Below, piece by piece: positions 2,049-44,700 of a stretch of 60,735 nt of DNA; the first letter of the stretch is position 1; each line of letters starts with the position of its first letter. The notes below the pieces were generated by a model. The model did not search any database and was not told where the DNA came from. It saw nothing but the letters and a program-made list of their open reading frames with translations. Source of the DNA: a virus (Duplodnaviria; Caudoviricetes); IMG/VR virus record IMGVR_UViG_3300042384_000237, positions 1 to 60,735 of that record. The stretch is one strand, 5' to 3'. The position numbers and the translations under genes were made by a program.

Positions 2049-2079
2049 GTACTTCATATAAGATACCCTCTTTCTCGCG
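2049..2079 (-). promoter_or_regulatory. Class I repeated motif, putative single-subunit RNAP promoter (GGGTATCTTATATGAAGTAC core)
   Basis: 20-nt core identical at 2049-2068, 23114-23133 and 24216-24235, each just upstream of a gene start. Confidence 0.75.
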
Positions 2080-6284: not shown

Positions 6285-6795
6285 TATTATCCCCAAAGTT
6301 CAGATACGCAAATTCACCATAGTGGTACAAGGCCGCCTCATCGTAAGCCTTTGCGCATCGGACCCTATTTTCAGGTGTGTCATATAAATCTAATAAGTTT
6401 AAGTAATACTTGTCGATACAGATTTGAGCGGTCACTCTTCCTCTCTTTGCATTGACACAGACGCCTTTATAGCCAGATGTATTTCGAGAAGAAGGGCCGC
6501 GATTCATTGCATTGTTACTTAATGTCGCCAATCTTAAATTTTCTAGCCTGTTATCCACCCTATTGCGATTGATATGGTCTAGAATATACCCTTTGGGAAT
6601 GGTATTTCCTGCCATTATCCAAATAATGCGATGTAACTTAATATTACGATCGTTAAGCCTAACCTTTAGATAACCTTGCCCATCACATGAGGTTATCTCA
6701 GCACCCTCTTTAATACTGACGTTAGTAGTTTCATTCCACCAGAGTTGGCCCGTCTTAAAGTCAACTGTAAAATGCTTATCAAATAATGTTTTCAT
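6277..6795 (-). CDS. Free-standing HNH homing endonuclease with AP2-like C-terminal domain
   Basis: LHRIIW...DHINRNRVDNRLENLR; NTSGYKGV...AYDEAA...GEFAYLNF. Confidence 0.9.
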   Translation of the reverse strand: MKTLFDKHFTVDFKTGQLWWNETTNVSIKEGAEITSCDGQGYLKVRLNDRNIKLHRIIWIMAGNTIPKGYILDHINRNRVDNRLENLRLATLSNNAMNRGPSSRNTSGYKGVCVNAKRGRVTAQICIDKYYLNLLDLYDTPENRVRCAKAYDEAALYHYGEFAYLNFGDNNG

Positions 6796-6804
6796 TTGTT
6801 AACC

Positions 6805-8520
6805 TCACCCGTGACAACTCAGACACTCGCCCGTTGTATTCGACTTGACGCCATTCTCCGTGCGAATGTAATACAACGATTTAATGTTTTCATTTAAAAA
6901 AGCCTCCTGATGTATCTCTGAAATATATTCTTCACTAGTATCAGAATCAAAGAATAAGTTAATACTCTGTGCTTGATCAATAAACGGTTGTCTAGCAGAA
7001 GCTAGCCTCAAGATAGCTTTCTGATCAATCTCGAATGCCGTCTTAAACACTTCTTTCTCATGCTGTGTCAACCAGTCTACATGCTGTACAGAGCCTTTAT
7101 GCGCCACAATATCATCGAGAGTTTCTTTTTCATCTAAGCCTTCTCTTTTGATTATCTTCATCAATGCGGGACTCGATCGTTTCATCTTACCTCCTGCACT
7201 ATTCTGAACAAATACGTTCTTATAGATAGGCTCGATACCTTGACTTGCGCCACCGGCAATCAATGCTGAAGAAAGATTAGGAGCTATTGCCATTAAATGA
7301 GTATTGCGTAAGCCTGTACCTTTACACCATTCAGGTTCACCCCATTCTTTTGCCATCCATTTAGAAGCCTCAATAGTCTTTGCTTGCATATCTTTAAATA
7401 GGTTCTGATTAAAGAGATGAGCATCAAATGATTCAAATGGAATATTGTGATCTTGTAAGTACGTATGAAAACCTAATAATCCTAATCCTAACGCTCTACT
7501 ATCTCTCGCGAATCGAGCAATTCTTTCAAGACCTGGAATCTTCTCGGTGATACGTATCTGATCCTCGTTGACACAATCGAGAAACACTGTAGCCACAAAG
7601 ATAGCATCTGTGTCTTTCCATTCGTCATACTTAGTTGCATTCATACTGCTTAACACACAAGAGTATGTATAGTCTTCGCCAGTTGTATAATCGGTGCCAC
7701 TAAATAAAGTAATTTCTGTGCACAAATTAGAAGCCTTTACCTTTAAGCCTCTTTCTTTATACATAGAGGGACTGGCTCTATTTACTTTATCAACAAAGAA
7801 GCAATAGCCTCTTCCGAACATTCTCAGTTTCATTATCTCTGTGAATCTTCTGTTTGCTTCTTCATCACCGGCTTCTAGTGCATCAACAAAGTCATCTGTT
7901 ATAATCCACCCTAAATTAGCATCTTCTGGACTCTTTGTCACATGAATAACAATCTCATCAAAGTCGTCATGCGTAGCTTCTATATAGCCTGCCCATGCTC
8001 CACGTCTTTGTGAGCCTTGACTGATGTCCTGAGCTACACGCACAAACCCCTTAAACACAGGCAATACGCCACTAGCACTACCAGCGACGCCAGTGATATC
8101 GCTGCCACGAGCACGGATGTCACCCAAGTAACTTGATGTCCCATAACCTTCCTTCGACAGTAAAGCTGCCTCTTTTTGTTTCTCGTAGAAATCGAATACT
8201 GTGTCACCAACGTAACTGCCGGAACAACTTACTGGTGCTCCGAACCCTGTTCCCATATTTGCGCAGACCGGTGTTGATGGAATGAGCCATCCCCTCCAAA
8301 GTAATTGAAAGAATTTATCACTCCAGTAAGCTGGATGTTCAGTATATGTAGCAGCGTGATTTGCAATACGGCGATACACAGTATATAGATCAGGATATCT
8401 CTCTGAAACATATTTTTCCTTAAGAATTTGCCAGCTGTTAGTGATTACCCAATCAGGAAGTTTACCTTCATCTTGGAGTTGTTTTCTTTCCGCAGATAAG
8501 TCTCTATAAATGCTCGTCAT
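6805..8520 (-). CDS. nrdA: Ribonucleotide reductase class I alpha subunit (no ATP cone)
   Basis: PVSC, RRGA, SNLCTEI, LGLG, AIAP, SLYY, C-terminal CLSC. Confidence 0.95.
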   Translation of the reverse strand: MTSIYRDLSAERKQLQDEGKLPDWVITNSWQILKEKYVSERYPDLYTVYRRIANHAATYTEHPAYWSDKFFQLLWRGWLIPSTPVCANMGTGFGAPVSCSGSYVGDTVFDFYEKQKEAALLSKEGYGTSSYLGDIRARGSDITGVAGSASGVLPVFKGFVRVAQDISQGSQRRGAWAGYIEATHDDFDEIVIHVTKSPEDANLGWIITDDFVDALEAGDEEANRRFTEIMKLRMFGRGYCFFVDKVNRASPSMYKERGLKVKASNLCTEITLFSGTDYTTGEDYTYSCVLSSMNATKYDEWKDTDAIFVATVFLDCVNEDQIRITEKIPGLERIARFARDSRALGLGLLGFHTYLQDHNIPFESFDAHLFNQNLFKDMQAKTIEASKWMAKEWGEPEWCKGTGLRNTHLMAIAPNLSSALIAGGASQGIEPIYKNVFVQNSAGGKMKRSSPALMKIIKREGLDEKETLDDIVAHKGSVQHVDWLTQHEKEVFKTAFEIDQKAILRLASARQPFIDQAQSINLFFDSDTSEEYISEIHQEAFLNENIKSLYYIRTENGVKSNTTGECLSCHG

Positions 8521-18056: not shown

Positions 18057-21017
18057 TTAAGCGAAAGCGTACTCGCTCTCTAATATTAAATTAACATCTA
18101 AAGTGCCCATATCGACACCAGTTAAGTTGCCCTCAATTTCATCCATTATTGGGTATAGAGGATTTTCAGTATAAAGCTCCACGAAGGTTTCTCGGACGAT
18201 CCTGTAGAGCTTTGGCATGTCAGCTAAGAGACATCCATAGCTGTCATGAATTGTTGTAATAGGGAAATCACAACGGTATGTAGTTAAAGCTAAATGCGCT
18301 GCATCTAAACTGTGGATAACATTTGGAGCCGCACCTTGTGCTTGTTTGCCCTTACTAGGTGAAACATCTTCAATAAAACATATTGCTAACTGAAGAGTAT
18401 TGATATAATATCCTGTCGAGACTCTTTCGCCTTTTGGCGGGCCGTATTGAATATATACTCTTTTTACTTTGCCTTCTGTATAATTTTGTATGACTGGAAA
18501 ATTTACAATTGGTACATTCCACTGTAAAAATTCCTCACGCTTCTCAGCATCTCTGCCTGCTCTTTCAAATATAGATAGTAACTGCATAGGTCTTTCTAAT
18601 GATGCCTTACAGTCTTCAAATACAAGCCGGCCCATCCAAGCGCCCCACTTGTGTTCCATATTAATTAATAACTCTATACCATGTTTCTTTGCATCTAAGA
18701 TTTGCTGTTCACCTAATCCATAACTACTACCGCCATCATTATCTTCAGTAAAGATCGTTAAGCTTCACCCGTAAATTTAGTTTTACTATAGATTAGATTG
18801 TAAATTCGCCATACAATTCTAATGATTTTTGTCTTACACATTCCGCAGCTTCTTCTGCAGTTTTAAATAGCCCTAAATACAATTTCTTGCCTTGATACCC
18901 AAGTCTCGCTTGAAACTTACCGTTAGGCGTTGTTAGAACACCTTTATAGCCTGTTGTATTATTTTTAGGAACTTTTGTATTAATTGAATTCTGAGATTGT
19001 GTTGCTAATCTTAAATTTTCAATCCTATTGTTTAAAGGGTCTATACCAATATGATCGATAGTTAAACCCGCTGGAATCGAACCATTATGCCATTCCCAAA
19101 TAACCCTGTGAACCATGTATGTTTTCTGCTTATGTTCAAATTGCAAATATCCTGAACTATTAACAGAGCCTACGTGATTGTGTTGATTGTTACTATAAAG
19201 TCTAATTAATATACCATCTTCGTACTCGTAATATTCTTTCCAATTCATTACTTACTCCTAATAACTAAATTTACTGCTGCATATCACTATGCAGATGAGA
19301 CTATCTCATCACCTCTCTAAGAGGGTGGAATGCGCTTCCCAGGGACTTCCCCAGTACATAATAGTCGTTACACCTTCATCTGAACCATATCTCCCGACAG
19401 TATTCAGTAGCTTGGCTCGGTATTGTCTATGGCGAATAGAGTTTCACCGAATTCACATTCTTTTATTTCCGCTAAGCTTAACGGAAGTGTCATTGTATTA
19501 CGCTTGACAATCTTTCTTCTTTGTTTAATATCTTTAATTCTGTTCCAGAATACAGGTGCAGCATGCGCTCCTATATTCGCCCACTTCAATTTATATGCTC
19601 GAATCTGAGCTACCAATTGATTTCTTACTTCTGATTTTGGTTCTGAAGCTCCAATTCTTTTCTTAAGAGATATCAAACCATCTATAAAGTCTTCGCATTC
19701 CAAGACCATCAATGCCGGCATCTTCTCCATCTCTTGTGTAATCTTCTGCCAGACATGCACTGCTACATAAGAATACAAATCTCCGGGCAACTCTAAAGGC
19801 ACCAAGTTTACATATGGCGCTGTAATCTCATCTCGCGTCAATGCGGACAGATGTTGTGAGCCATTTGTCGAACCATCGATGAAACATTCTAATTGTGATT
19901 GATACTCTAAGTACCTAGTGCCCATCGAGAGTGCATTCCTGAACTCAACACAAGCAGCTAAGAATTGCCACGGCTTATCCGCAGACATCCAGCCTTGATT
20001 CACTTTGGGAGATAGCGCGTAGGACAGTATAATCTCTTCATTATCCATAACCCAATGATACCTATCTTTCATAGGGATCTTGTCTGTCTTAGCTCCATCT
20101 TCACGTCCTGAATTGCCCGACCAGTTGCTAGCAATACTGACGCATAACCAGAAGAAACCTTCTTCACCAATTGCTTTCTTATCTTTTCTTAATAGCAAAC
20201 CCTTAGCGATATCAGAACTTTGTTCATGTAGGTAAGCTGTTGTTGGATATTTACGCCCCCTAAAATCAAGATAATACATATGGTAAAATGGTATATCTAT
20301 AAACTTATCTGCTATTGATAGAATAGCTTTTGTCTCCCGAAGCTTTGTTGTCTTTGCTTGCGGATTTACTTGTTCCCAAATATCTGAGAATGCATCTGTA
20401 TGATTGTTTAATGCCCATTTAGCTAGTGCATATACTTCTGAATTAATACACCATGCTGTCTCTTGAGATTTATTAATTGATCCAAATATTATTGGATGTG
20501 TTTCAGGCGTGAGAAGTGTCGGTATTATCTTACTACCAGTCTTTACCAAGACAGCCCCTGTGTCATGCTTAAATGAAGTCCAGGGCGCATAAGGGGTTTC
20601 AGAAGGGAGCTTGCCCTTTCCGCCTGTCCTAGAGATACTCTCCCAGAGGCCTTGAATAGCGGCATCATCTAATATCTCTATTATATAAGTAGCATGCCCA
20701 TTAGTTGCGGCACCGAGCTTAGCTTCTAACATACCCAGTTCTTGAAAACTATACAGAATAAAAGCTCCAGCTTTTGCGGCTATTGATGAATCTTTCTTTG
20801 AACCTTTTCTAATTGAATGACCAATGACTGAGATAATCTCGGCCATTAGAATTGCCTTATCAGGGCCTCTCTTAGGGCGTGTATAAAGATACACATTAGC
20901 AATTATGTCTTCAATTACTTCAGCAAGCACTATTGTCTTCAAGAATTTTAGAGGAGACTGCGGTGCGATCTCTGCTTGTATTCTTGCTTTTAGTGACTTC
21001 ATCAAAAGTGTTTTCAT
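18057..21017 (-). CDS. T7-like single-subunit RNA polymerase (RNAP-2); exon 1 21017-19481, exon 2 18736-18057, 738 aa after splicing
   Basis: DFRGRKY, DGSTNGSQH (A), RKIVKRNTMTLP|YGG (B, restored by splicing), PNVIHSLDA, TIHDSY (C); exon frames join exactly. Confidence 0.93.
18737..19480 (-). mobile_element. Group I intron (IA2-like), 744 nt, with HNH gene in a P9 extension
   Basis: P1 UUCCGU/GCGGAA with U-G at the 5' splice site; terminal G; P3 GAAUGUG/CGCAUUC; P7 GACUA/UAGUC; P9 with GUGA tetraloop; 12-bp stem enclosing the ORF. Confidence 0.93.
18793..19248 (-). CDS. Intron-encoded HNH homing endonuclease (HNH + AP2-like)
   Basis: VHRVIW...IDHIGIDPLNNRIENLR; NTTGYKGV...YLGLF...YGEF; AGGAG SD. 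Confidence 0.9.
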   Translation of the reverse strand: MNWKEYYEYEDGILIRLYSNNQHNHVGSVNSSGYLQFEHKQKTYMVHRVIWEWHNGSIPAGLTIDHIGIDPLNNRIENLRLATQSQNSINTKVPKNNTTGYKGVLTTPNGKFQARLGYQGKKLYLGLFKTAEEAAECVRQKSLELYGEFTI

Positions 21018-21228
21018 TAGATTCCTTTTTAATACTTGTATTTAAAGCACATGAAAAAAGATATAGTAGAAACAAATTAAGTATTGGCATTTTCCCCACT
21101 ATTTACTAAATGTAATGCAGTGGCCATTAAAACGACTGGCAGGGTCATTCCGAATAAGAGTGTTGCTACATATACTGTTAACGAATAATTAATTGTATTG
21201 TTCATAAGATGAAAAAAATAAGAGGTTA

Positions 21229-21284
21229 ATCCTCCCCAACCTCCTATACACCCCGTTAGGAGCATATAGAAGGTTGAGGAGGAT
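21229..21284 (-). other. 26-bp RNA hairpin (probable RNase III-type processing or terminator element) upstream of RNAP-2
   Basis: Fully paired on the - strand with 5 G-U pairs and a UAAC loop. Confidence 0.7.
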
Positions 21285-21296
21285 AGATTCTTACTT

Positions 21297-21314
21297 TTGA
21301 GCCCGAAGGCTCAA
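21297..21314 (-). other. C(UUCG)G tetraloop hairpin without U-tract
   Basis: TTGAGCC-TTCG-GGCTCAA after the stop of 21327..21716. Confidence 0.6.
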
Positions 21315-21326
21315 CTCTCTTATGAA

Positions 21327-21716
21327 TTAAAAACTTCGGATCTCTTTAAGTAAGGCATAGTCCTTTTTGTCAATATAGATCGGGTGGAGGGACCCACTTA
21401 ACTCTACAATGGGATAAACTGTAATCCCATCTTCTGTGTAACTCTTTAATAAATACAAATCATCAATCTCAAACCTTTTCGCGCCAAACGCATACTCTAC
21501 AGGTTTGTCTTTTCTTTCTTGAGGGAATTGGCCTCTCAATACAATCTCGCCTTTCGACTTAATAAATACTGCTTTCTTTCTAAGATTTTTCTTTATATTC
21601 TTTTCCTCTTCCTCCTTTTCTTTTACAAGAGCTTCATTTGAGCCTTTCATAAATTCTTGAAAGTCATCTGTGAAAAATAAACAAGCAATACCTACAACAA
21701 TTAATAAAGGATTCAT
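21327..21716 (-). CDS. Protein with N-terminal hydrophobic anchor
   Basis: MNPLLIVVGIACLFF; ATGA overlap. Confidence 0.6.
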   Translation of the reverse strand: MNPLLIVVGIACLFFTDDFQEFMKGSNEALVKEKEEEEKNIKKNLRKKAVFIKSKGEIVLRGQFPQERKDKPVEYAFGAKRFEIDDLYLLKSYTEDGITVYPIVELSGSLHPIYIDKKDYALLKEIRSF

Positions 21717-21982
21717 GCGAACATCACCCATATTAATAGCAGTGGAAAACCCACCAGCAGATCGAAGGCGATACTCACCAAATTGATCACTGTACCGATT
21801 GCGGAATAATTTAAAGGTATTGCTGCAAACAATAGCAAGCCTACTGCTGCTGTTGTAACAGCTACAGCTGTGGTTACTTGCAAGATCTCAGCTTCTACCT
21901 GCTTCTCTGCAGCTGTTCTTTGATCTTGAAGCTTTTCTAAAACATACGCAACTGCACCTGCTGCTAAAATTAAAGGAATCAT
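21713..21982 (-). CDS. Small multi-pass membrane protein
   Basis: Two to three hydrophobic segments. Confidence 0.6.
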   Translation of the reverse strand: MIPLILAAGAVAYVLEKLQDQRTAAEKQVEAEILQVTTAVAVTTAAVGLLLFAAIPLNYSAIGTVINLVSIAFDLLVGFPLLLIWVMFA

Positions 21983-22266
21983 TTTGAATCTCCAAATAAA
22001 ACGTTCATTAGGTTGAATACTGCAAGACCGACTATTACACCAGCCACTACAGGATTAAGAAGTATAACTGTGCCTGCCACACTAGCAGAGGCAACCGGTG
22101 TAGCGATGGCTGTTGCGCCAACTTGTAAAGCTACACGTGAAACCACTACTGTGGCTACTTCTGCAATTACTATTGCAGGTTGTGATGCAACATACGCACC
22201 AGCTAAGTAACCAGCTGAAGCTGGAACAACCGCGTCTACTACTGTCATCAATTCACTTCTACTCAT
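21979..22266 (-). CDS. Ala/Val-rich hydrophobic protein (start MSRSELMT)
   Basis: The track start at 22338 lies inside the hammerhead; AAGGGTG SD precedes 22266. Confidence 0.6.
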   Translation of the reverse strand: MSRSELMTVVDAVVPASAGYLAGAYVASQPAIVIAEVATVVVSRVALQVGATAIATPVASASVAGTVILLNPVVAGVIVGLAVFNLMNVLFGDSK

Positions 22267-22287
22267 TTTGTTCACCCTTGTGTGGTT

Positions 22288-22339
22288 AGTGTTTCGTCCT
22301 GGATTGGACTCATCAGTATGGGATTTACCCGTATACACT
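22288..22339 (-). ncRNA. Type III hammerhead ribozyme
   Basis: AGUGUA^UACGGG-UAAAU-CCCAUA-CUGAUGA-GUCC-AAUCCA-GGAC-GAA-ACACU: full core, stems II and III perfect, stem I with one C-A mismatch. Confidence 0.8.
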
Positions 22340-22381
22340 TAAGCACTTTATAGACCTACTCAGGTCTTTACAGCTGTTACT

Positions 22382-22627
22382 TTAAAGTTTGAAACTGAAT
22401 GAATACATGTCTTCTGAATCCTTACATAAGTCATGACCGCTGTGTTGGACCATCATGTAGCCTATCGCCCCAAGGTCTCTCGAGCTTACAGATGCCCGAG
22501 GCATGTCGTCGAGCACAACTGTAACGTCAGCATCATGTCTTCTACCTTTATAAACATTACCATATACTTCAGATTCACTGGTAAGAGTTAATTCTACTAC
22601 TACGCTTGCGATTGTAATTGATTTCAT
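22382..22627 (-). CDS. Hypothetical protein, paralogue of 22649..22900
   Basis: MKSI.IA.VVVELTL...SEV.G.VY.G.R...YSF shared. Confidence 0.7.
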   Translation of the reverse strand: MKSITIASVVVELTLTSESEVYGNVYKGRRHDADVTVVLDDMPRASVSSRDLGAIGYMMVQHSGHDLCKDSEDMYSFSFKL

Positions 22628-22648
22628 TTGATTTACCTTTTAGTTATA

Positions 22649-22900
22649 TTAAAGTTCGATTTTGAATGAATAAACGCCTTTTTCAGATATACGTAGAGCT
22701 GAGCCTTCATGCATCCACATTATATAGCTGGCTTCCCCTGCATCTGTTGAGCTTACTACTGCCCAAGGGCTTTGATCTGGTGGGCATATTACTGTTATTT
22801 CGGAATTGTTTCTCGTCCCTGCATAGACTTGACCTGTTACTTCAGAGTCATTAAGAAGAGTTAATTCTACTACTACACATGCGATTTTAATTGATTTCAT
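22649..22900 (-). CDS. Hypothetical protein, paralogue of 22382..22627
   Basis: Shared sequence and shared leader GGTAAATCAAATG. Confidence 0.7.
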   Translation of the reverse strand: MKSIKIACVVVELTLLNDSEVTGQVYAGTRNNSEITVICPPDQSPWAVVSSTDAGEASYIMWMHEGSALRISEKGVYSFKIEL

Positions 22901-22911
22901 TTGATTTACCC

Positions 22912-23064
22912 TTAGTTAGATTTCATTGCGGCTAACATAGCCTGTACTTTTGCCATCATATCTTCTTGGCCATTATCCATAGCTTTGATGCTTTCATCAT
23001 GTGCAATTCTCATTGCTTCTAATTGTGCATCTACCTTTGCTTGTGCTTGTTCAATAGTGTTCAT
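22912..23064 (-). CDS. 50-aa Met/Ala/Gln-rich helical peptide (MNTIEQAQAKVDAQLEAMR...)
   Basis: Manual translation; AAAGGT SD; first gene after a class I motif. Confidence 0.6.
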   Translation of the reverse strand: MNTIEQAQAKVDAQLEAMRIAHDESIKAMDNGQEDMMAKVQAMLAAMKSN

Positions 23065-23113
23065 TGTGATTTACCTTTATAATTAAATTAAGTTAATTGG
23101 GAGTACCTTATTT

Positions 23114-23144
23114 GTACTTCATATAAGATACCCCCTTTTCCGCG
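23114..23144 (-). promoter_or_regulatory. Class I repeated motif (putative phage RNAP promoter)
   Basis: Identical 20-nt core at 23114-23133. Confidence 0.75.
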
Positions 23145-23145
23145 T

Positions 23146-23361
23146 TTATTTTCTACCCGAACTCAGCTTAGAGTCAAGCATATATTGTGCCATCTTGTTA
23201 TCGAAGTCGCTCAAATCTGGCGCCATATCTTCGTGTGTCTGCTTGATTAAAGCCAACTGATTAACCACACGAGTTTGTGCCACAAGCACATCATCATTAA
23301 TCTCTGTAATGATCTGTAGCCAGTGTAGATACTCTACATAGCTCTTTGTGTAAGGTTTCAT
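23146..23361 (-). CDS. Hypothetical protein (MKPYTKSY...)
   Basis: ORF track frame; ATGA overlap with upstream ORF. Confidence 0.55.
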   Translation of the reverse strand: MKPYTKSYVEYLHWLQIITEINDDVLVAQTRVVNQLALIKQTHEDMAPDLSDFDNKMAQYMLDSKLSSGRK

Positions 23362-23519
23362 TTGTAACTCCGTTGCGATAACGGTTTCCAACCTTTAACT
23401 CTATTATATTCTTTTCTTTCGAGCAAAATATCACGAACGATTTGATAACCAAACGCCACCATAGCAAATAATATCGCATCTGCCGCCAACCCCAATCTCA
23501 CAAATTCTTCTGTACTCAT
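23358..23519 (-). CDS. 53-aa single-TM protein (MSTEEFVRLGLAADAILFAMVAFGY...)
   Basis: Manual translation; ATGA overlaps at both ends. Confidence 0.5.
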   Translation of the reverse strand: MSTEEFVRLGLAADAILFAMVAFGYQIVRDILLERKEYNRVKGWKPLSQRSYK

Positions 23520-24215: not shown

Positions 24216-24246
24216 GTACTTCATATAAGATACCCTCTTTCCCGCA
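24216..24246 (-). promoter_or_regulatory. Class I repeated motif (putative phage RNAP promoter)
   Basis: Identical 20-nt core at 24216-24235. Confidence 0.75.
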
Positions 24247-24360: not shown

Positions 24361-24606
24361 CAGACTCAGCCGTTTCACCGTGAGCCAGATTTTCACCGAC
24401 AGTCACCATTGTGGAACCAGAAACCGGGGTACACGGCATTTTTAGCGGTGCCTGACCCGACAGTGATGCCCCACTTTTCCGTGCCGCAGAGTGCCAGATT
24501 TGACCCCGTCCCGCAGCCCACGAACGGCGAGGACTCCCGGAATCTCTCCAGAAACATACCCACACGCCACGCAAAATCTGACCCATTACTCTCGTATGGC
24601 CTGCGT

Positions 24607-24636
24607 AAAAAACGCCCCAACATTGCTGTCAGGGCG
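24607..24636 (-). terminator. Rho-independent terminator ending the structural operon
   Basis: CGCCCTGACA-GCAA-TGTTGGGGCG-TTTTTT. Confidence 0.85.
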
Positions 24637-24641
24637 GTATA

Positions 24642-32744: not shown

Positions 32745-35700
32745 TTAACCTCTATAGTTACGTTCACGATTGTACTGATTCACACCCGCCGCAATCTGCG
32801 GTAGCATTTGTGAGATCTCAGCACGTGTTTGGCGAGAAATATCGCCTGTTATATTCATATTGATGACACTGTTATTGGTCACCGAATTGGCCCCGTCAGC
32901 AGATTTAGAAGCTGTTGGTATCGCCATTATTGGAGAAGCCGCAGATGAAATAGTTGCACCTGAATTGATTGCCTCAAGTAACTCTCTGTTTCGTGATGTT
33001 GCCGCTGCATTAATAACGTATTCACCATTAGATAACATCGTCGGAATTGAATCAGAAGTTCCTGTACCCGCCCCTGTTATTAAACCACCTGTTGCGGCAC
33101 CAAGCCCAAAGTTACCACCAATCGTTATACCATAAATAGTATCTTGTACTCTTTTGCCATTATCGTCAATATAGTCGACTTGTTGGATTGATGGCGCAAA
33201 ATGTAAATCTTTAAAAGCAAGACCTAACGAGTCCCAAGCTGTTTTAGGAATTTGTACTTTACTCAATCCAATCTTACCAGATTCAGATATAATTAACTTA
33301 GTCCAATCAACAGGAGCTAGCTGAGTCGCCAGTGTACCAAAGGCATTGAAGTCACCTGCCAAAGCAGATTTGGTTGTTCCAAAACCTTTTTCAGGGGTAT
33401 ACTTGCCCTGAGAGCCAAGGAAGTTACTGGGAATTATTTCTATATCGGTCATAGGGCCAATATCAACAGAGGCTTCGCCTTTTGATAATGGTGTTATTTT
33501 CTCTCCAAAGATATTTGAAAAGTCACCTTTTAATATTTTAGAAATACTGGAATACAAACTACCCATGTGCTCTCTTAAATACAACCAAGCACTTGTGCTA
33601 CCTGTGGAAATAAGATTTTGAAGACCACTTAACGCTTTACCGCCGCTGGTTTTATCATCTATTTTAAATCCAGGAACATTAAGATTATCAGTGGCCGTAT
33701 TAACAACATCAACCCAAGTCTTTCCTTTATCAAAACTGAGTTGCTCACCTTTCTGAATCACAGTAAGATTCTGAGATTCTGCAGGCATAGCTGAGTCTAA
33801 TTTAAAACCTAATAATTCATTAACATTAACACCACTTTTAGCCAAGTTATCAATATTTGTTTTATTAGCTATATTAGTTTTAATCTTTTGAACTGACTCC
33901 CCCAGCACATCTTTAGTGGCACCGAATAAACTATCGGGAGTGGCTACTGCACCTAAGCTTGGTTGCCATGAGATGCCTTTATCGTTACTGATCAACTGAT
34001 CGGCTAATAAAGCTTGTGTGGCTTCCGAAGTCTTCTTATCATTGTAATCATAAGAACCAAAACCATCCGACATCCAGCTGCCAACATCCATTGCTCCGCC
34101 GGCCAATAATGATTTGAATTCATTAGGAGGAATTGTAATTCCATTATAAGATAATGCTTTTGTGGTATCCAAAATGCCTTGAATATTCTTTCCCACCATT
34201 TGATCTTGTAATAATTTGGAAGATGTTGCTAAGAGCTTATTGTATTCACCTTCGGCTGCCTTACTGCCATAAGTTTTACCCAATGCCCATGCCGTAAAAT
34301 CTGGTCCGGAGGCTAAAGTCTCTGCCGTTATTTTGCTTGGATTTTCTACTGATGCCTGGAACTTTTCATTGAAACCACCCATTGGAGTATTAGCAGGTAT
34401 TTTTCGAAGACCATAGTAACCCTTACCTGCCGCTGAAGTAGTGTTAACATAATAATCAGGGGCAGGAATCAAGCCCTCTTTATACATTTTATTAACTTGT
34501 TGGTTATGTAAACCAAATTCTATTTGCATCGGCGAGAGTGCATCAAATCCACTACTGGTTGGCGGTCCAAGAATATAATCATAAAATTCCGCTAAATCCT
34601 TAGGTATACTACTAATTATAGATCCTTTCGGTGCACTCTTTTCGCCTTGCTTATACTCAGCAGACGTATTCCATACCTTACCCCCTTCAAATACACCATT
34701 TAAGTACGGACTCGTATATCCAAAAGGCTTATCAACAGAGATGGGTTTATAATTTAAATTAGGAAATAAAGATTTACCGTCAGTATTCTTAATATTTAAA
34801 AATGCTTCTTTTAATTTATCTGAATCATAATTAGCACTGCCTTTTATTTTAGTAATATATGCGTCTAGATCATTAAGATCTTTAACGCTACCTGTAGGGT
34901 ACTCTCCAGATCTCATAGCATCGAGAACAGGTGCATACTGACGTGTCATATCTGCAGGTACAATATACTCACCATTAGATAGCATGACAGGAATCGAATC
35001 AGATGTTCCAGTACCTTGACCACGTAGCACACCTGCAGCACTTTTCAGAAATCCCGTAGCAGAACCACCGGTACCGGCCATACCGCCCTCTTTCTGGCCA
35101 AACAGCATATCACCAATACCCTGTGTAACGCCCGTGATAAACTTCCAAACGCTAGTACCTACTTTTCCTGTAATGCCTGACCAGTCAATATTAGTATTTG
35201 CAAGTGCTGTAATACCGTTGTCAATCCAACCCCAAAGTGTTTTACCAACATCTAAAATACCGTTTCCGCTGGCTTTTATAATATCTAATGACGTTTCACC
35301 AATTGATTTAAAATTAATAACTTCAGACCAATTTATTTTTGCTAATTGCTCTCCAATGAACGCAAAAGGTTTTAGTATAGTTGCGGAAATCCCTTTTATA
35401 TTCTCTATTGAAATATAATCAGAGAATGGAATTTTCATTATTTGAGAGCCAATCCATGTGAATGGTTTTATTATATTTTTACCAATTGCTGCGGCTGTGT
35501 CTAAAGATAAATATTGACCCGGATCCATTGCAGCCACTTTACTGGCTATCCATGTAAATGGTGTCAAAAGAGTCTTAAAGCCCTTGCCAACAGTTTCTAT
35601 ACTAAAGAATTTACTATAATCAACACCCTTAAGTGTTTCGTACATATATGCGAAAGGCTTTAATACAATTGCCCCGCCTACAGCTTCCATATTGTCAACA

Positions 35701-38700
35701 GTAAATACACCTGTTACGCCTTTCCATGCTTCTCCAATCAAGTTGCCTGCAGAATCTGTCCAACCGTTGAAGGTTGCAGAGATAGTATCTAGGTTGATGC
35801 CTTTTAAAGTACCTTTTACGGCTTTCCAGCCTTCCCCAATTAAATTCCCAGCATCATCATACCACTCGGAAATTGTTGCTACAACAAAATCTTTAGCAAG
35901 TTTCACTTTCCCTACAAGACCATTCCAAACATCGCCAATAGCATTCCCGGCTGAATCGACCCATTTAGATATTGTAGCCGTTACAGAGGGTGCATTGCCC
36001 GAATTCACCGTGCCCGTGACTGATTGATTACCACCGCCCATCCAAGTCACAACGGCAGACATTGAAGGTAGATTGCTTGAAATTATTCCTGCAACATTGA
36101 CGACACCATCCCAGACAAAGTTACCTGCTTTGTTTAATAATGCAGCTGTTTTATCGTAAACATTTATAACACCGCTCCATACCCATTTGCCAGTATCTGC
36201 AAAGAATTTTCCCACTTCTTTGGCTACATCTATAACGCCTGTGCCGATACTTGTTGTAGTATCATTATACATATTAGCAATTTGCTGCCACAGACTTGTG
36301 CCGATTCCCGCAGACATACTCAAATCATCACTTGCTCTCGTTAAGTCTTTAGCGGAGTCTATTAAGTCCTCGCCACCGATGACAGTTACGTCTGTCTGAA
36401 TTGGTGTAGATAATACGGGCGCATTTGAGAAGATAGGTGCTTGATTACTGAATGCGTTGGTGTTACCCAATAGACCGCCTTTAGCAAATTTGGGCATCTT
36501 ATCTTGATTGATCGCATCAATCAGAGTACCATATTTGGCGGTAGATTTAGCATTGATAACGAATTCACCGTTAGACAATCTTGCCATGATAGAATCGGAT
36601 GTACCAGTTCCAGGACCAGATATCGGCCCGCCTTCAGCTTTGCCACCAAAGAAGTTACCGACATCTTCTCGGAAGAAAGTGCCGACATCGCCAAAGAACC
36701 CACTAGTGGCTTTAGAAGCAGTAGGAACGCCAGGGATAGCGTTTAAGCCTTTCCCGAACATATTAAAGATGCCTTCGCCAAGACCCGATGCCATATTCTC
36801 AATGGCACCACCTTTGCCCATGCCTAATGAATTAGTTATCCCTGTAGAGAAAGAGTTAATAGTAGAATCAATTAAATTCTGTTTCAGCTTTCCTGCAAAT
36901 GTTTGGAATACTGACTCACCCTTATTTTTCTCGCCATGCATCAAACCTTTTAGCGCATCGTTGAAACCACCAGTTAACCCGGTTGCGAATGACATGCCAA
37001 CATCTTTAGCAACCTTTGCTGCAGCCATTGCTTTATCACCCATCTCCGAAATCTTATCACCGAGATCCAGGATCTTAAGTGAAGACTCGGTAGTAGATTT
37101 TCCAGCCTTAGCATCGGCTGCCATTTGATACTCTAAGTTAGCTTTCTCGTGTACCATTTTTGAAGCACTAGCTTTCTCTTCATTAGAGAGAAGTCCGATA
37201 TTTTCGGCGCTCATTCCACTATATGTTTGTAAGAATGCTGTTACGTTACCAGAAGCAGCTTCTTCAAACTTTTGCATCTCTGCTAAAGTGGTAGGTAGTG
37301 TACTTGCAGCCAAGCCTTTATTGGTACCTTCAATACCTGCAGCTATATTCAGCTTATCTTGAACTGATTGTTTTGTGGGTTGCCCTGTATTGATTGCAGC
37401 ACTCAAATTCAGCTTATCTTGAGCTATCTTAGCAGCTACTGATAATGCATAATTTTTAAGTTCTTCTGACATGGCATTAAATGCATCTTCAGTATAACCA
37501 GCCTCTAATATCATAGCTTTACGTTTTTGAAAACCTGTTACATCTTTGGTTTCCGCCAACGTCATGTCTGCTCTGTTTAGTGAAGCTTGATTTGTTCCAG
37601 CAGCTTTAACATTATTTAACCAGATTTCGAAAGATGAAGCAACTTCTGAACTGACAGTATTAACCTTCTGTGCAATATTGGGGAGTGTAGTCGATACGGC
37701 TTTTTCTGTTGCTGGTTGCGCAACACTAACTTTGTCAGCGATACTGATTCCTGGTTTAGCAGCCAAGATGCTACGTATATCCCAACCGCCTTCTTGCTCC
37801 GCAATCCCGATAGCCATTTGCTCATTAAGCTTTGGCTCTGCAAAATTAACCTTATCAGCAATACCAATCCCTATTTTGGAAGCTAAAGTTGCTGCATAAA
37901 GCACTGGATCATTGTGGTCACTCTTAGGTGCAAACTTAGCCGTAAATGCAGATAGCGTGTCTATACCGTGTCGCGTAGTATACCACCCAATTTGCTTTTT
38001 TAATTTTTCAACACCAGCTTCTATAGAGTCAAACTTTTGAAAACCTGGAGTACCGTCATAATTTTTGAGATTACCTACATTGCCACTGGCAGGGAATGGT
38101 TTACCTGCGCCAATCTTACTTGTTGAATCTGTAGCAGTAGCAGTGGTAGTAGGCGCACCAGTAACCGCATTCTTAAACTCTTCTACACTACTTTTAAATG
38201 TTTCATTAGATGTAGCAAACATTTCAAATGGTGTTGTAGCAGGTTTTAATTTGTCAGCTATATTAAGCTTGGCAAACTCGTCGCTGAATCTAGACTGCAT
38301 ACCGATAAGAATCTCATTTACAGGCATTCCTTGCTTTACGCTAGATGTTGCAAATTGATACATATCCCCTGACATTGAATTCAACTTCTGCAATTCTTCA
38401 GAGAAACGAATTGTCTCTGCACTACTTTGCAAAGCAGCTTTATCACCGGCAGACATTGCTGCATACTGTGTAGATGTGATGGACAGATCAGGTAATGCAG
38501 ATTTAATCTTATCGAAAGTAGAAGTAAACCCATCCGTCAAAGTTTCTCTTAATCTGGTTTTCATATCACCAAAGAAACCTAAGAAAGACGCATGAGATTT
38601 TAAATTCTCAAAGCTGGCAGCTAATGCTTCAGTTGCAGGAGTCATATCAGACTCTTTCATAGCTTCTTCTAACGCCGATTTATACTGAGTAGCTGTTGTT

Positions 38701-41700
38701 GATAGTTGTGACCAAAGTTTAGAAGGCAATCCAGCTAACACTGCTGTTGATAAGTTAATACCATAAGCTTCATTAACAGTAGAAATTTTCGTTGTAAGGT
38801 CGGCTAAACTTGCTTTGATTGCATCTCTGCGTTTCTCAGCGTCAGCTAATTGAGTATTCAAAGATTTTAATTGAATAGGATCTTTGTTAGCTAACTTAAT
38901 ATCAGACTGTAGTTTAAAGATGTTTGCATCAATAGAGTTGATTTCACTGATTAGCTCAGTACTTACTCTTTTAAACTTACGAGGAGCATCTAATCCAAAC
39001 TCAGGGAATGCAATATCTCTGTGCGCTATTGCGGCTTCAGCTTTGTCAAGTTCTTTTTCTAAAGCAGGTAACCATTCGGATTGAACTAAACCGCTATCGC
39101 CAGCTTTAACCATTTCGATTGCATCTTTTAGTCCTGAGATCTTTTTGATTGCAGCATCAGCCGAACCTTTGCCATAGTCTTCAAATACTTTAGCATAATC
39201 AAAACCAGCCCTTCCTAATTCAGCAGCAGATTGCTTAATAGATGCAAAAGGATCTGCACCGATTAATCTGTTAGTCATGACTCCAATGTCCGTTTCCATC
39301 TCTTGGATATGCGCTATTGCAAACTCACGCTGATTAACTAATTCGTTAAAGTGCTCTTGAGCTTCGGAATTTTCCCGTAAGATTCTGATATCCTCAGCCG
39401 AACCCGTCATCGAAGGTCTTGCTTTCAATGTCGGTAAAGGAATTGGCGTATCAATTAGTGCTCTTGCAGCCTTCGCTTTTATCAGATATGTATCTAAATC
39501 TCTTAAGCTTGCACCTATTTCTACATTAAATTGCTTAGGTATAATAGGAACTGCTAACGGCTTAATATTTGGTGTCAAGCCCTCGGAAACAAGAGGACTG
39601 ATTGGGATAATCGGTGAGAGCTCCTGTTGGAAAGGGTCTCCTACAGGTCTAATCATTTGAAAAGGATTGGTCGAGAGTCGAGGGCCTTTTGCATTAGGCG
39701 GAAGCGGTTTTGTCAAATACGGCGTGGCATTTACCATTGCCCCCATGCTTTGTTTTGAAAGCTCTAACCTTAAATTATTATCGACATATTTAAGAGCTTC
39801 TACATTTTTAAGACCAAACGCTTCTGCATTTTTAACAACTGTTGATGATGCATTTACATAAGCATCTGCAGCAACATCCTGTGCCATCTGAGCTTGTTTA
39901 CCAATAATAGATAACTGAGCGATAATTCTATTTCTCTCTTCAGCACTCCCTATTTTATCTAATTGATCCTTCAATCTTTTTGCTTCAAGACCTAAATCCT
40001 TCATACGCGCTAAAGCTATATTACCTTCAGATTCAGGTAACAGATCATCAGCTTTAATTGTTACATTAGCGTCTTTAAGATTGCCGATTAGAGAACTAAC
40101 CATTGTTTGATACAAATCGCTCTTTTCTAAACTTGCTTTAAGTTCTGCACCGCGTGCCACAAGTGCTTTTAACACCTGTTCAGCTTTCGTTAAATTCGCT
40201 GCATCGAGAATTGTCTGAGGATTATTTTTACCAAAGAATGTATCATTGAGTAAATTGGTTACAGTCTTCCCGCTTAAATCATGACTGACTTTTTCAGTAA
40301 AGTCCACTAAGTCATCGCTGGCTACTGAAAGGCTTGTTTTAATTGCGTCGTCTAGACCGGTTACATTACTTAGTGCTAGCGCGTCTTCTTCTAATTTCTT
40401 GAACGATAAGATACGCGCCTTAACCCCTTCTTGTGCCGGTGTTAAAAATGCGCCAGATTTGCTAACGTCGTCAGGTTTAATACGTGCAACATTTCCCATT
40501 TCAGTAGGGAGTGTTAATGCCTTGAATGCATCCTGAGCATTCATTCTTCCTCTAAATTTATTCATTTCGAAGCTACTAAAGAAATCGACGCCTTTTTGAA
40601 TATCAAATTTAGATGCCCTCGTCGCGGCTGCAGCATTCTTATTTAATATCTCAACTGCTTTCTCTGCATCTTTTTGTAGATTAGAAGTATCACCATATGA
40701 ACTGCCACGTTCTTTAGCAGTCTCTAATGCATCAAATGCTTTCTTAGCTTCTTCTATAGATTTAGTATATTTTTCATAAATACGTGGATCTTGGATATTG
40801 CTTTCTTTGATTTTGGTTGCATCATACTGTAACTTTAAACCGTGCTCTCTAGCTAAAGTAACTTCTCTCGCAAGCATTCCAGATTTAACATCTTTAACTT
40901 CTGAGTGAATACCAATGATCTTTTTGACCCAATCATAAACCTCTATCAAGGAGTCGACTAGACTGCCTGTACTACCCATTAAGAAGGATGCTAGCAGACC
41001 GCCTGCCAGTATTGCGCCGCCGAATGTAGCAAAGACTGCCGGCCCGATAAGTGCTGACAAGGACATTAACCAGCCTGTTACCATCGGAATAAGCATCATA
41101 CTGAACATAGAAGCTAAGCCTGCGCCGATACCTGCACCGACTTCTCCGCCAAATTTGTTACCGATTGCAGCACCGCCTACAGCGGCTAGCCCCATTACAG
41201 CAGTACCTGCGCCCACACCCGCAAAACCTTTTGCCAGTGAGCCAGACATACCAATGTTTGCTCTATTTGGATTCGCTTGATAATAGCCTAAGTAACCTTC
41301 TCTTGTTCTAGGGAAAGCATCCATTCCAGGCATTGTGCGATACTCTTTACCTCTTTGAGCACCCGTTAGCGAATCATATCTTTTAAGAACGTCTTCTTTG
41401 AGGATCTTATCACGAACTATTTGTGGAGTTACATGATCAGCAAGTTTCGCTCCAGGTGGTAATAAACCGCCTGCAACTTTAGCATTGAATGCAGCGGTTG
41501 CTTCTTGTGTTACAGCTGCCACTCTTGATTGACTTCTTTTCAAAGCAGTTGTCATTAACGCAGGAACACCCAGTCCAACAACCCAAGAAGCTACATCGAT
41601 AGTTTTACCGAAAGATTCAAAAGAACCCATGAAAGCTCTGGCATGATTTTTACCGGCTGCTTTTGATTCGTCTGTATCTTGTAAGAATGGAATTTTTAAT

Positions 41701-44700
41701 ACAATACCAACTGCGAGAGTTGCAAATAAAGCTTTCCAATTCCATAAGAATTTAGTCATTGACATTAAGCCAGCTAATACTTTACCCATTAAACTTAATC
41801 TAAAGGTTAAGCCATTTACACCAGTAATTGCGGCTGCAAGGTCACCAATCCAACGTCCTAAGAATTTGCCTGGAAGCGATTGCATAACACCTGCGGCACG
41901 CCCCATTGCCCACAACTCTTGTGTCATTAATCTTAATTTAGGTACAAAGTTTGCAACACCCCCATTAGCTAATTCTTTCCCTTTCTGTTGAACCACTTCA
42001 AGAGTCTTGAGCAGGTTCGGATACATCATGGTGCCTTTTTGTAAAGCAGTCGGCGGTCCCATGAATGTAGCTGAAGGTGGCTGTAACTTTTGTATTAAAT
42101 TCTCAAACCGAGAAGGTTTAAGTGCTGCCGAACGACCTCTTGCTGCATCCGCATTTAAAGCTGAAATAGCTGCTCTGTCTGCTAATACCTGTTTAATCTT
42201 GCTGGACGCGCCGGAAGCTATTGGTCCAAAAACTTCTGACAACTTAGTTGCAATACCGGCGACCAAAGGTGACATTTGTTTTAATGTAAGAAATAATTCT
42301 CTGACAATAATCCCCAAGTAACTCTTCATATTTAAACCAAGAGCACCTGCACCCGAAGACGCGGCAACACCTTGGAAAGCCATGAGTTGATTACCTAAGC
42401 CACTCAATAAGACCATAAAGAGACGCATAGGGCTTGCTAATGTTAGTAACTTAGCCAGCGGCACAACGAAAGCGGCAAATGCTGCAGCAACTGCAGTAAT
42501 ACCAAGGAATAAAGATTGACTTGGAGATAGATTCTCCCAGAAACTTTTAAGACCATTCGGTAGTGCGCCTAAAGCTGTTTCTTTTATATTTAAAATTCCA
42601 GATCTAACTCTTTCAGAAACATTATCATAAGCATACGCTGTCTTGTTAACAATCTCTTGTAAAACAGTTGTTCCTTCAGTTTTCCCAATAAAAGGAATAT
42701 TAGCTGAGAGACGCGGTATTGGCATTCTTTGATACGTACGAGTCCCGCCTGTTTTTGCAACTTCAGCTACTTCTTGTTTTTGCTGGATACCTTGGTAAAC
42801 ATCACCACCCATTAAATCTGGTGTCTCGGTACTTGCGCTTGCAGTATTAGAGTAGATTAAAGCAGCGGCAACCAATGTAGCAATTAATCTTCCAGGGGTT
42901 ATCACACTTGTTAAAGCACTAACAACACCAGGTGCAACTAACATTGCTCTGGCTTTTACCCATACAAAGAATGATTCAAAAGAATTGTAAGCCATCCCTA
43001 ACGCTGTTGCTGGAATACCTGTAGGACCAAATAAGAATCTGGACATAAACGAAGTAGTTCCCACGGGTGTCAATGCTGTAGTAAACCTTTCTCTTAATCC
43101 ACTAAATACACCGGCTAGTATTGAAGGATCTCTAATCATACTTCCAAGAGTCCCAAACATACGTGCCAAATTACCACGTATAGTGTTATCTGGAATTAAC
43201 GTGCTTAATGAATTCAATACAGGTCTAATAACAGACTCATTAATACGTGAGATACCTTCCGGTCCCATTAATGCTAAGGCAATCAAACCGCCTTGCATAT
43301 ACGCATGCCCTAGTGGGCTGTCATAAAAGACTTGATCAAACATTCCTAATTGATCGGCCATGAGGCCTACCATTGCACCAGAACTTACAGCATTACCGGG
43401 ACTAAAGAAAGATGAAGAAGCTCTGCTAGCGGCAGATTGTGGACGTGCTTGATAACCCATACCAGGAGGTAACGGCGGTCCCATTCCCACATTAGATGGA
43501 TTGGACATTAAGCGTGTCATATTATGACCAGCTACAGCTGTGTTAGCTAATGTGCCTGAGAAGAATGACCCTACTGCGCCTGCAATTTTAAAGACTCTCG
43601 AGATTTGTTTCTCAAAGATACCTAATGTGGATAACATTTTAAGCGCAGGGCCTCCGAAGAGTAATGCACCTAATAAACCACCAGCTGTACTGAATTGGAA
43701 TAAATCTAGAATACCATATACGATACTGGCAACAGTTCCAACAATCGGAATGCTCTTTAAAAAGCCTTCGATAGCTCCGCCAATAAAGCCTAAGAGATTC
43801 GAGATAATACCTGGCAGATCCGCTAGCAACCCGAGAAGAACTGTTCCAGCGACATTACCTGCAACTTTACCAGCTTCAACTGCAAAGCTAACACCAAATC
43901 TTAAATCAGCAAATACATTTGCAAAAGCCATACCAGCTAGTAAAGCCGCTCGTAAGAACACTCCACCAAGAAGAGATGTTATTCTGTTCTCTGGTAATAG
44001 TAAACTAACGAAAGCTAACCCGAACACATTTGCAAAAGCTTTTAAAGCATGCTGTAATTCTTCTGGTAACTTATCAAATAGCCCGCCAACAAAATCCTTT
44101 GCAATAGTGAAAGCTTTCTTAAAGTTACCTGTAGAGATATTAATTACGAAATCACTTTTCAATACATCAGCTACAACACTCTTGATCTTTGCAAAACTCT
44201 TAGCAACACCATCACCGATATCTGAGAGGATATTAGCTGCCATTGGCGAAATAGTTCTGATTGAACCCAGCATCTTTTGCAAATTGGTTGTTATATCTAC
44301 ATTTGAAATTCTATCAAAGATATTAACAATGACTTTATAAACGCCTTCAAAGACTCTGATAACATTGCCGGCAAATTGTTTCAAACCGCCATCAGTATTA
44401 TTTTTCAAATTCTTAGATGTATCAACTACAGTCTCAACCGTATCTGTCCACCATGAATTACCAATTACAGCGTCATATATCTTAAAGAATACTTCGATTA
44501 CATTCTTACCGAAATCAGCAATTGCTTCAAATGCGCTTTCTAGTTTACGAGTCTTTGCTTCAACACCATCAAATATTTTATTTATACTGTTGGCTAAATC
44601 TTTAACAGAGAAACTAATGTTAGTAGCCGCTTCAATCCCTTTGAATTTTTCACGAATATTACGCGCAAAGCTGGAGAATAAATTCTCAACATACTTAAGA

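Follow-up and report, generated by a model that had tools for sequence, protein, structure and literature searches.

Reports of hammerhead ribozymes between the genes of phages and prophages date back to 2010-2011; these ribozymes often occur in twos or threes and flank small ORFs of unknown function (PMC3088659; PMC6155905). Hammerheads in prophages flank single genes and cleave within native polycistronic transcripts of about 2 kb (PMC3088659). In a halovirus, a hammerhead variant is found 13 nt ahead of an early gene, and the mapped 5′ end falls no more than 3 nt from the cleavage site (PMC3088659). For hammerheads of phages, the usual hypothesis is that they split a polycistron and release an mRNA that starts in a 5′-hydroxyl (5′-OH) (Perreault 2011, PMC3088659). 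According to a 2019 review, the roles of self-cleaving ribozymes in bacteria are largely elusive (PMC6765202). Self-cleavage in the 5′ UTR of eukaryotic RNA viruses, which can drive translation initiation according to a 2026 paper (PMC13725137), may be a functional parallel.

We analyzed a hammerhead at a gene junction in an uncultured virus of the class Caudoviricetes from a lake. The window, that is, the whole stretch of 60,735 nt analyzed, is an IMG/VR record that is 87% complete, and all of its long ORFs lie on the minus strand (Table 1). A blastn search of window positions 21000-23500 against named phages returned no match, and in RNA polymerase the window shares only ~33% identity with the closest named phages.

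The junction element has the sequence and fold of a type III hammerhead

Read from 22339 to 22288 on the minus strand, the element is AGUGU-A-UACGGG-UAAAU-CCCAUA-CUGAUGA-GUCC-AAUCCA-GGAC-GAAA-CACU. The preliminary description of this DNA had listed a type III topology, a CUGAUGA/GAAA core, a GUA triplet, stems I to III, and one C-A mismatch, all of which are present on the minus strand. Stems I and II are closed by loops, and stem III is open. The core positions C3-U4-G5-A6-N7-G8-A9 read CUGAUGA (22316-22310), and G12-A13-A14 read GAA (22295-22293). We also applied the closing-pair and H17 criteria from the methods list of PMC3088659: the pairs A15.1-U16.1, 10.1-11.1, and 1.1-2.1 are A-U, G-C, and U-A, respectively, and the cleavage-site nucleotide is A17, an H rather than a G. 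The cleavage triplet is G16.2-U16.1-A17, and hammerhead numbering agrees with the cleavage predicted earlier between 22334 and 22333. Hammerhead-class cleavage leaves a 2′,3′-cyclic phosphate and a 5′-OH. The predicted 3′ product would start with U 22333 and have a leader of 67 nt to the ATG at 22266-22264, a distance previously approximated as about 65 nt.

The minimum free energy (MFE) fold of the 56-nt element is the hammerhead, with a z score of -1.67 that is insignificant alone, and the fold is retained when the element is folded in its 161-nt native context. Beyond its C·A mismatch, stem I has only three G-C pairs. Stem I has six positions and stem II four pairs; the supporting information of PMC3088659 ties such a two-pair length difference to the type III pseudoknot. 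By eye, loop 1 (UAAAU) and loop 2 (AAUCCA) can form at most two Watson-Crick pairs.

The preliminary description had proposed a check against hammerhead models. Rfam model RF00008 (Hammerhead_3) matched 22286-22341 from end to end (model positions 1-54 of 54), with E values of 6.9e-6 in a 331-nt search and 3e-7 in the 60.7-kb record. The score of 34.4 bits is below the gathering score of 48.5 bits, which is a curation cut-off and not a structural feature. Judged from its sequence, the element has every structural feature tested for type III, and the Rfam score cut-off is the only test that it fails. A scan of the whole window at gathering thresholds listed nothing; this blank is a filter effect, since the group I intron, which scores above its own threshold, was also missed there. 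A descriptor that equaled the observed motif in strictness matched 3 times in 1,000 shuffles of the window that preserved dinucleotides, and a looser hammerhead descriptor matched 188 times. By themselves, before conservation is considered, the Rfam, shuffle, and folding results are suggestive and do not decide the matter when many windows are scanned.

Table 1. Coordinates of the hammerhead, its parts, and the surrounding features in the window
Feature	Position	Strand	Remarks
Type III hammerhead ribozyme	22288..22339	-	Identified from sequence, RF00008 match, and covariation
Stem III	22335-22339 with 22288-22292	-	5 bp, open-ended
Stem I	22328-22333 with 22317-22322	-	6 positions; C·A mismatch 22331/22319 (1.3/2.3)
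Loop 1	22323-22327	-	5 nt
Core CUGAUGA	22310-22316	-	Canonical, intact
Stem II	22306-22309 with 22296-22299	-	4 bp
Loop 2	22300-22305	-	6 nt
GAA (of GAAA)	22293-22295	-	Core
Predicted self-cleavage site	22333..22334	-	3′ of A17 (22334), by hammerhead numbering
Conserved 26-nt motif AGACCTGAGTAGGTCT-N-TAAA-N-TGCT	22342..22367	-	2 nt upstream of hammerhead
83-nt junction block (motif + hammerhead)	22285..22367	-	98.8% identical to L005 4016..4098
Two similar small soluble ORFs	22649-22900 (83 aa), 22382-22627 (81 aa)	-	Start MKSI.IA.VVVELTL; upstream of 26-nt motif
First downstream ORF	21979..22266	-	95 aa, GRAVY 1.25; AAGGGUGA 6 nt before ATG
Further ORFs with TM-like segments	21713-21982 (89 aa), 21327-21731 (134 aa), 21077-21265 (62 aa)	-	Kyte-Doolittle
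T7-like RNA polymerase gene	18057..21017	-	Exon 1 19404-21017; exon 2 within 18057-18659
Group I intron in T7-like RNA polymerase gene	19277-19490	-	RF00028, 62.8 bits (gathering score 50)
HNH endonuclease ORF in group I intron	18793-19248	-	
Phage_Mu_F + RNA_pol fusion ORF	52981-57618	-	1545 aa; Phage_Mu_F head-morphogenesis domain at residues 146-250
Repeat GGTATCTTATATGAAGTAC, three exact copies	24216-24234, 23114-23132, 2049-2067	-	25-45 nt before ATG
Repeat CCCGTTAAATTAACCC(T/C), four copies	52309, 52165, 15397, 1369	-	Variant near 24363

The hammerhead is conserved and its stems covary among relatives

A search with the T7-like RNA polymerase led to five related contigs (74-92% amino acid identity). 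Four of them carry one or two family hammerheads, and one, which is 60% complete, carries none. When all nine related records are counted, one or two family hammerheads occur in each of eight, the exception being the one 60%-complete record; three 100%-complete relatives (77-81 kb) have one or two each. The relative L005 contains two hammerheads. One is the window's save for a single loop 2 base (22302), and the other (L005:4497) departs from it in stem II (GGUUC/GAACC) and in loop 1. L002 and L006 each have one hammerhead at the syntenic junction, with all three stems altered. An extra U follows A9 in the hammerheads of L002, L006, and L079, and the L077:3941 hammerhead has a C at position 7. 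Rfam missed the L002 and L006 hammerheads because of the extra U; at E ≤ 1, it did not recover those of L002, L079, and L077:3941.

A pattern search that combined the upstream motif described below with the core returned eight viral stretches and added three distinct variants. We built a covariance model of the family on 18 sequences. It gave a single match in the window (53.7 bits) and recovered a copy that had not been seeded (L077:3941-3989, 44 bits). MAFFT misplaced gaps in the hammerhead loops, so we relied on an alignment of 19 sequences fitted to the covariance model and on a core-anchored count, which guards against errors of alignment register.

Among the 19 distinct sequences, 86.2% of cells were paired, compared with a shuffle mean of 73.4, and none of 500 shuffles reached as high a value. 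When partners were slid by one to three columns as a control, 21-47% were paired. Compensatory changes were frequent, with 10 of 14 pairs changed on both sides, and the covariation score was 0.324 versus 0.112. By the core-anchored count, the CUGAUGA/GAAA core is kept in all 19 sequences (one C7 among them), as are the pairs G10.1-C11.1, A15.1-U16.1, and C15.2-G16.2. Four pair types occur at stem II position 2 and likewise at position 4, and stem I positions 2-6 each show two to four. The stem I mismatch at position 3 occurs in 5 of the 19 sequences, all within the window's lineage; a sixth copy from this lineage (L077:3941) has a C·A mismatch at stem I position 2, and the L077:3400 hammerhead has a weakened stem III of three pairs. 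The alignment had been fitted to the model, and about half of the sequences came from pattern searches in which the core and a portion of stem III were fixed, so the invariance of the core is in part built in. This does not apply to the covariation of the stems.

Contigs from other samples differ from the window hammerhead in loop 2 only (22301). Conservation and compensatory stem changes among relatives lead us to conclude that the hammerhead is genuine and under selection: the window element is, from its sequence, an evolutionarily conserved type III hammerhead with a predicted cleavage site.

The layout of a type III hammerhead 10-25 nt ahead of an RBS and ATG also occurs in unrelated phage contigs. 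In a wider set of 70 viral stretches with the core pattern (L007-L076), most hammerheads have a closed stem III and are type I-like. In several contigs of this set (L013, L015, L019, L034, L049, and L061), at least two hammerheads occur that differ in topology, and those of L018 are a tandem pair.

A conserved 26-nt motif precedes the hammerhead

Directly upstream of the hammerhead is a conserved 26-nt motif that the preliminary description had overlooked. In the window, it begins directly behind a TAA triplet, taken independently of frame. We collected 28 distinct contexts of the motif, 7 with a hammerhead and 21 without. The hammerhead starts 1-3 nt past the motif in all six distinct motif-bearing variants. 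L086, a member of the hammerhead lineage, has both arrangements: the motif alone precedes one gene, and a one-mismatch motif with a hammerhead precedes the next.

The motif contains a 6-bp inverted repeat that does not covary. Position 12 is G in 16 contexts, A in 5, T in 6, and C in 1, and its partner C5 is invariant, which makes this a sequence motif rather than a hairpin. The idea that the repeat forms an RNA hairpin shielding the 3′ end of the upstream RNA is weakened accordingly, as 12 of the 28 contexts break the pair.

Copy number varies among phages. Four 100%-complete records, among them that of an unrelated 174-kb phage, have the motif only once; L094, L098, and L099 have multiple copies. 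On the minus strand of L094 (10600-11340), a consensus TTGACA-17-TATAAT is followed by three tandem copies of the motif and then a hairpin, and further variant copies lie ahead of several SSB-like genes. In L094, therefore, the motif is a multi-copy intergenic signal, and its three tandem copies are transcribed there, being downstream of a consensus sigma-70 promoter. Of the five motif-bearing records outside the hammerhead set, four have no homologue of either of the window's two polymerases (Table 1), which weakens a role of the motif as a promoter for the phage's own polymerase. A scan for sigma-70 consensus sequences flagged nothing at 22342-22367. An exact-match search of the genomes of 185,579 species returned zero copies of the motif, and thus no bacterial or host copy; a scan of metagenomes for the motif together with the core returned zero matches.

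What follows the motif also varies. We considered whether another ribozyme replaces the hammerhead behind it, and a search of the sequence after the motif in L084, L085, L086, and L089 against Rfam at E ≤ 1 found no ribozyme except the hammerhead of L086. In L084 (10130-10300, minus strand), a long hairpin of very high stability (MFE -54 kcal/mol, z -4.2) comes after the motif. Hairpins of this type also occur in L087, L088, L090, L091, L092, and L096, which belong with L084 to a lineage of large phages of up to 174 kb, and matched no Rfam family. A literature search found no description of the motif string or of its fusion to a hammerhead.

Motif and hammerhead together form an 83-nt block that is shared with L005 and has unlike sequence on both flanks there. 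Contigs from three other runs cover exactly 22285-22367 and then diverge into unlike sequence. Given this near-identity between unrelated flanks, we propose that the block acts as a joint for the exchange of gene cassettes. As for the motif itself, a promoter or start signal is narrowly the leading candidate, at less than even odds; a protein-binding or processing site at the RNA level is a somewhat weaker candidate, and some other function is less probable still.

The block lies between two sets of small genes

The three small ORFs upstream (50, 83, and 81 aa) have no TM-like segments by Kyte-Doolittle analysis. The 83- and 81-aa ORFs are absent from L005, where the 83-nt block comes directly after the 50-aa ORF. 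Downstream, as noted in the preliminary description, the ribozyme is hidden in an over-extended, GTG-started ORF (21979..22338). The true start of this 95-aa ORF is the ATG at 22266 rather than the GTG at 22338. Three membrane-protein genes had been reported downstream of the hammerhead. Small ORFs with TM-like segments are indeed present there; their number is four, not three (95, 89, 134, and 62 aa), and Pfam and PHROG searches assigned none of them to a family.

The T7-like RNA polymerase gene follows and is interrupted by a group I intron. In L005, positions 6752-6963 are 83% identical to the window intron (19272-19488) and are accompanied by an endonuclease-like ORF (6945-7517). The intron interrupts the polymerase gene after residue ~253 in L005 and after residue ~512 in the window, so related introns appear, by sequence comparison, to occupy two sites of one polymerase gene. 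A second RNA polymerase-like domain, of the single-subunit type, lies at residues ~860-1106 of the Phage_Mu_F fusion ORF, and its presence makes the earlier label RNAP-2 reasonable. This fusion ORF is a candidate for a virion-carried polymerase. A separate ORF (32745-46973, minus strand) encodes 4742 aa, which is very large for a phage of roughly 70-80 kb; it matches tape-measure-type PHROGs at both ends and in one internal region.

The structural block that precedes the small genes is closed at ~24606-24640 by a terminator-like hairpin with a U run. Between this hairpin and the small-gene block is a GC-rich, apparently non-coding stretch (24370-24640, minus strand) that is 90% conserved with L005 2204-2819; in Rfam at E ≤ 1, it matched no family beyond a terminator look-alike. 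Two repeat families in the window resemble start signals. The copies of GGTATCTTATATGAAGTAC lie within a conserved block of ~50 nt with an imperfect 10-bp inverted repeat, and this block is also conserved in L002, L003, L004, L005, and L006. They are candidate promoters of one class, and the nearest copy upstream of the hammerhead (23114-23132) is a candidate start signal for its transcription unit. The CCCGTTAAATTAACCC(T/C) copies, which we take to resemble T3/T7-type promoters, lie upstream of the structural and replication blocks on the coding strand, and the 52309 and 24363 copies have ~100 nt of C-rich downstream sequence in common. These repeated promoter-like motifs make it plausible that the small-gene block is an early operon, as it had been labeled.

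Discussion

Our preferred model, to which we assign a probability of roughly 55%, is that the ribozyme is transcribed inside a longer RNA, cuts constitutively, and frees the mRNA downstream. The hammerhead would be transcribed within the small-gene block, which extends from ~24.3 kb to the gene for the T7-like RNA polymerase, and would cut itself 3′ of A22334 after transcription of stems I-III. The upstream RNA, with the ORFs for small soluble proteins, would then end in a 2′,3′-cyclic phosphate ~8-33 nt beyond the 26-nt motif. On the downstream RNA would be the four ORFs for small membrane proteins and, probably, the one for the RNA polymerase; its 5′ end would be a 5′-OH followed by the folded stem I and stem II hairpins and 67 nt to the first ATG. 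If such cleavage occurs in vivo, the likely effect on expression is that the two RNA halves differ in stability or translation. We infer co-transcription with the upstream genes, a point on which two other copies bear: L077:3941 lies directly after a stop codon, and L005:4497 is preceded by a degenerate motif. Without an intact motif upstream, these two hammerheads must be internal to a longer transcript. The recurrence of the hammerhead-RBS-ATG layout in unrelated phages and the published prophage and halovirus transcripts (PMC3088659) also favor this model. If the 26-nt motif is a promoter, there would be no polycistron to split at the window copy.

In that case, the hammerhead might instead trim 5′ ends, a possibility that we consider rather doubtful. 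Transcription would start within the motif or just past it, and the ribozyme would remove the first ~10-20 nt together with the 5′-triphosphate, which would leave the membrane-protein mRNA with a 5′-OH end capped by stem I. The conservation of the motif as sequence, with position 12 variable and C5 never so, is consistent with such a start signal. The motif is also invariably co-oriented with genes, follows the nearest stop triplet at a distance of 0-26 nt (mostly 1-11 nt), and, where it occurs alone, is placed 15-45 nt ahead of an RBS and ATG. Its multiple copies in L094, L098, and L099, the constant 1-3 nt spacing to the hammerhead in all six variants, and the pair of arrangements in L086 fit as well. 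However, the motif is single-copy in four complete records, it is not flagged by the sigma-70 consensus scan, and four of the five motif-bearing records outside the hammerhead set, one of them the 100%-complete 174-kb record, lack both polymerases. In addition, three of the L094 copies lie downstream of a consensus promoter and are themselves transcribed, and some hammerhead copies lack the motif.

A broader version of 5′-end trimming, which we regard as unlikely, would make the motif an undescribed transcript-start signal of unrelated freshwater phages, the hammerhead at its 3′ edge a 5′-end editor, and the block a recombination joint as well. Each transcript would then shed its first 10-20 nt and its 5′-triphosphate, the ribozyme would not be an operon splitter, and motif and ribozyme together would serve as a joint for swapping small early genes between phages.

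It is quite improbable that cleavage acts to destabilize or limit the downstream message for the membrane proteins and RNA polymerase. The small hydrophobic proteins encoded there might be harmful if over-made, and the effect of a 5′-OH on an RNA depends on host RNases. On the other hand, the 3′ product would retain two stable 5′ hairpins and an intact RBS, and the sequence contains no hint of ligand control. The model for such a role is glmS, in which cleavage is followed by degradation, as described in a review (PMC6765202). Finally, an inactive relic or a chance look-alike that does not cleave, which might be suspected from the sub-threshold Rfam score and the stem I mismatch, is very hard to reconcile with 3 strict matches in 1,000 shuffles, compensatory changes in all three stems across relatives, and population contigs that vary in loop 2 only.

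The window hammerhead is a modest addition to a known class of phage ribozymes, and its extra value lies in the uncatalogued motif and in the pairs of junctions with and without a ribozyme. The locus leaves the role of phage hammerheads unanswered, yet it offers a clean natural comparison: within one lineage, some genes are preceded by the motif alone and others by the motif and a hammerhead 1-3 nt behind it, and L086 has both. With one or two ribozymes per genome and such natural pairs, the effect at a single junction could easily be tested with reporters.

Comparison with known systems

The RNase III sites of T7 depend on a host enzyme, form long duplex hairpins, and are numerous in the genome. 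Like these sites, the window hammerhead would cut phage polycistronic RNA between genes. In contrast, the cut in this lineage would be made by the RNA itself at only one or two sites per complete record, and the inverted repeat of the motif spans only 6 bp rather than a long duplex. The preliminary description had proposed an equivalent of T7 RNase III processing, a view that we do not retain in light of the 0-2 family hammerheads per related record. At one or two copies per genome, the hammerhead is confined to particular junctions and does not form a processing system that spans the genome.

The closest match by structure is RF00008, which has the same topology and core and aligns over its full length, although the window sequence scores lower than its cut-off (34.4 versus 48.5). 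By context, the locus resembles the phage intergenic hammerheads of Perreault et al. (2011), for which a canonical core, three helices, small non-conserved ORFs, one or two nearby copies, and a proposed role in transcript cutting are described, as here. Published bacterial and phage hammerheads are mostly type I or II (PMC13725137), whereas that of the window is type III. Its fusion 1-3 nt behind a 26-nt motif also sets it apart from the phage hammerheads in the accounts cited here. The 'HHphage' hammerhead of haloviruses HF1/HF2 is likewise viral and located just upstream of the first ORF of an early polycistron (PMC3088659). It differs in its core insertions, high-salt setting, location in an archaeal virus, and 13-nt leader, compared with the canonical core and 67-nt leader of the window.

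Short intergenic cassettes that bound small variable genes are also known as the PeSLs of T4-like phages (Comeau et al. 2014, PMC4122927). As described there, a PeSL combines a sigma-70-type early promoter with a terminator stem-loop and includes no ribozyme, and the window motif fits neither part. Nevertheless, the 83-nt block behaves as a PeSL does in one respect: homology ends at the cassette, and unrelated genes lie beyond it.
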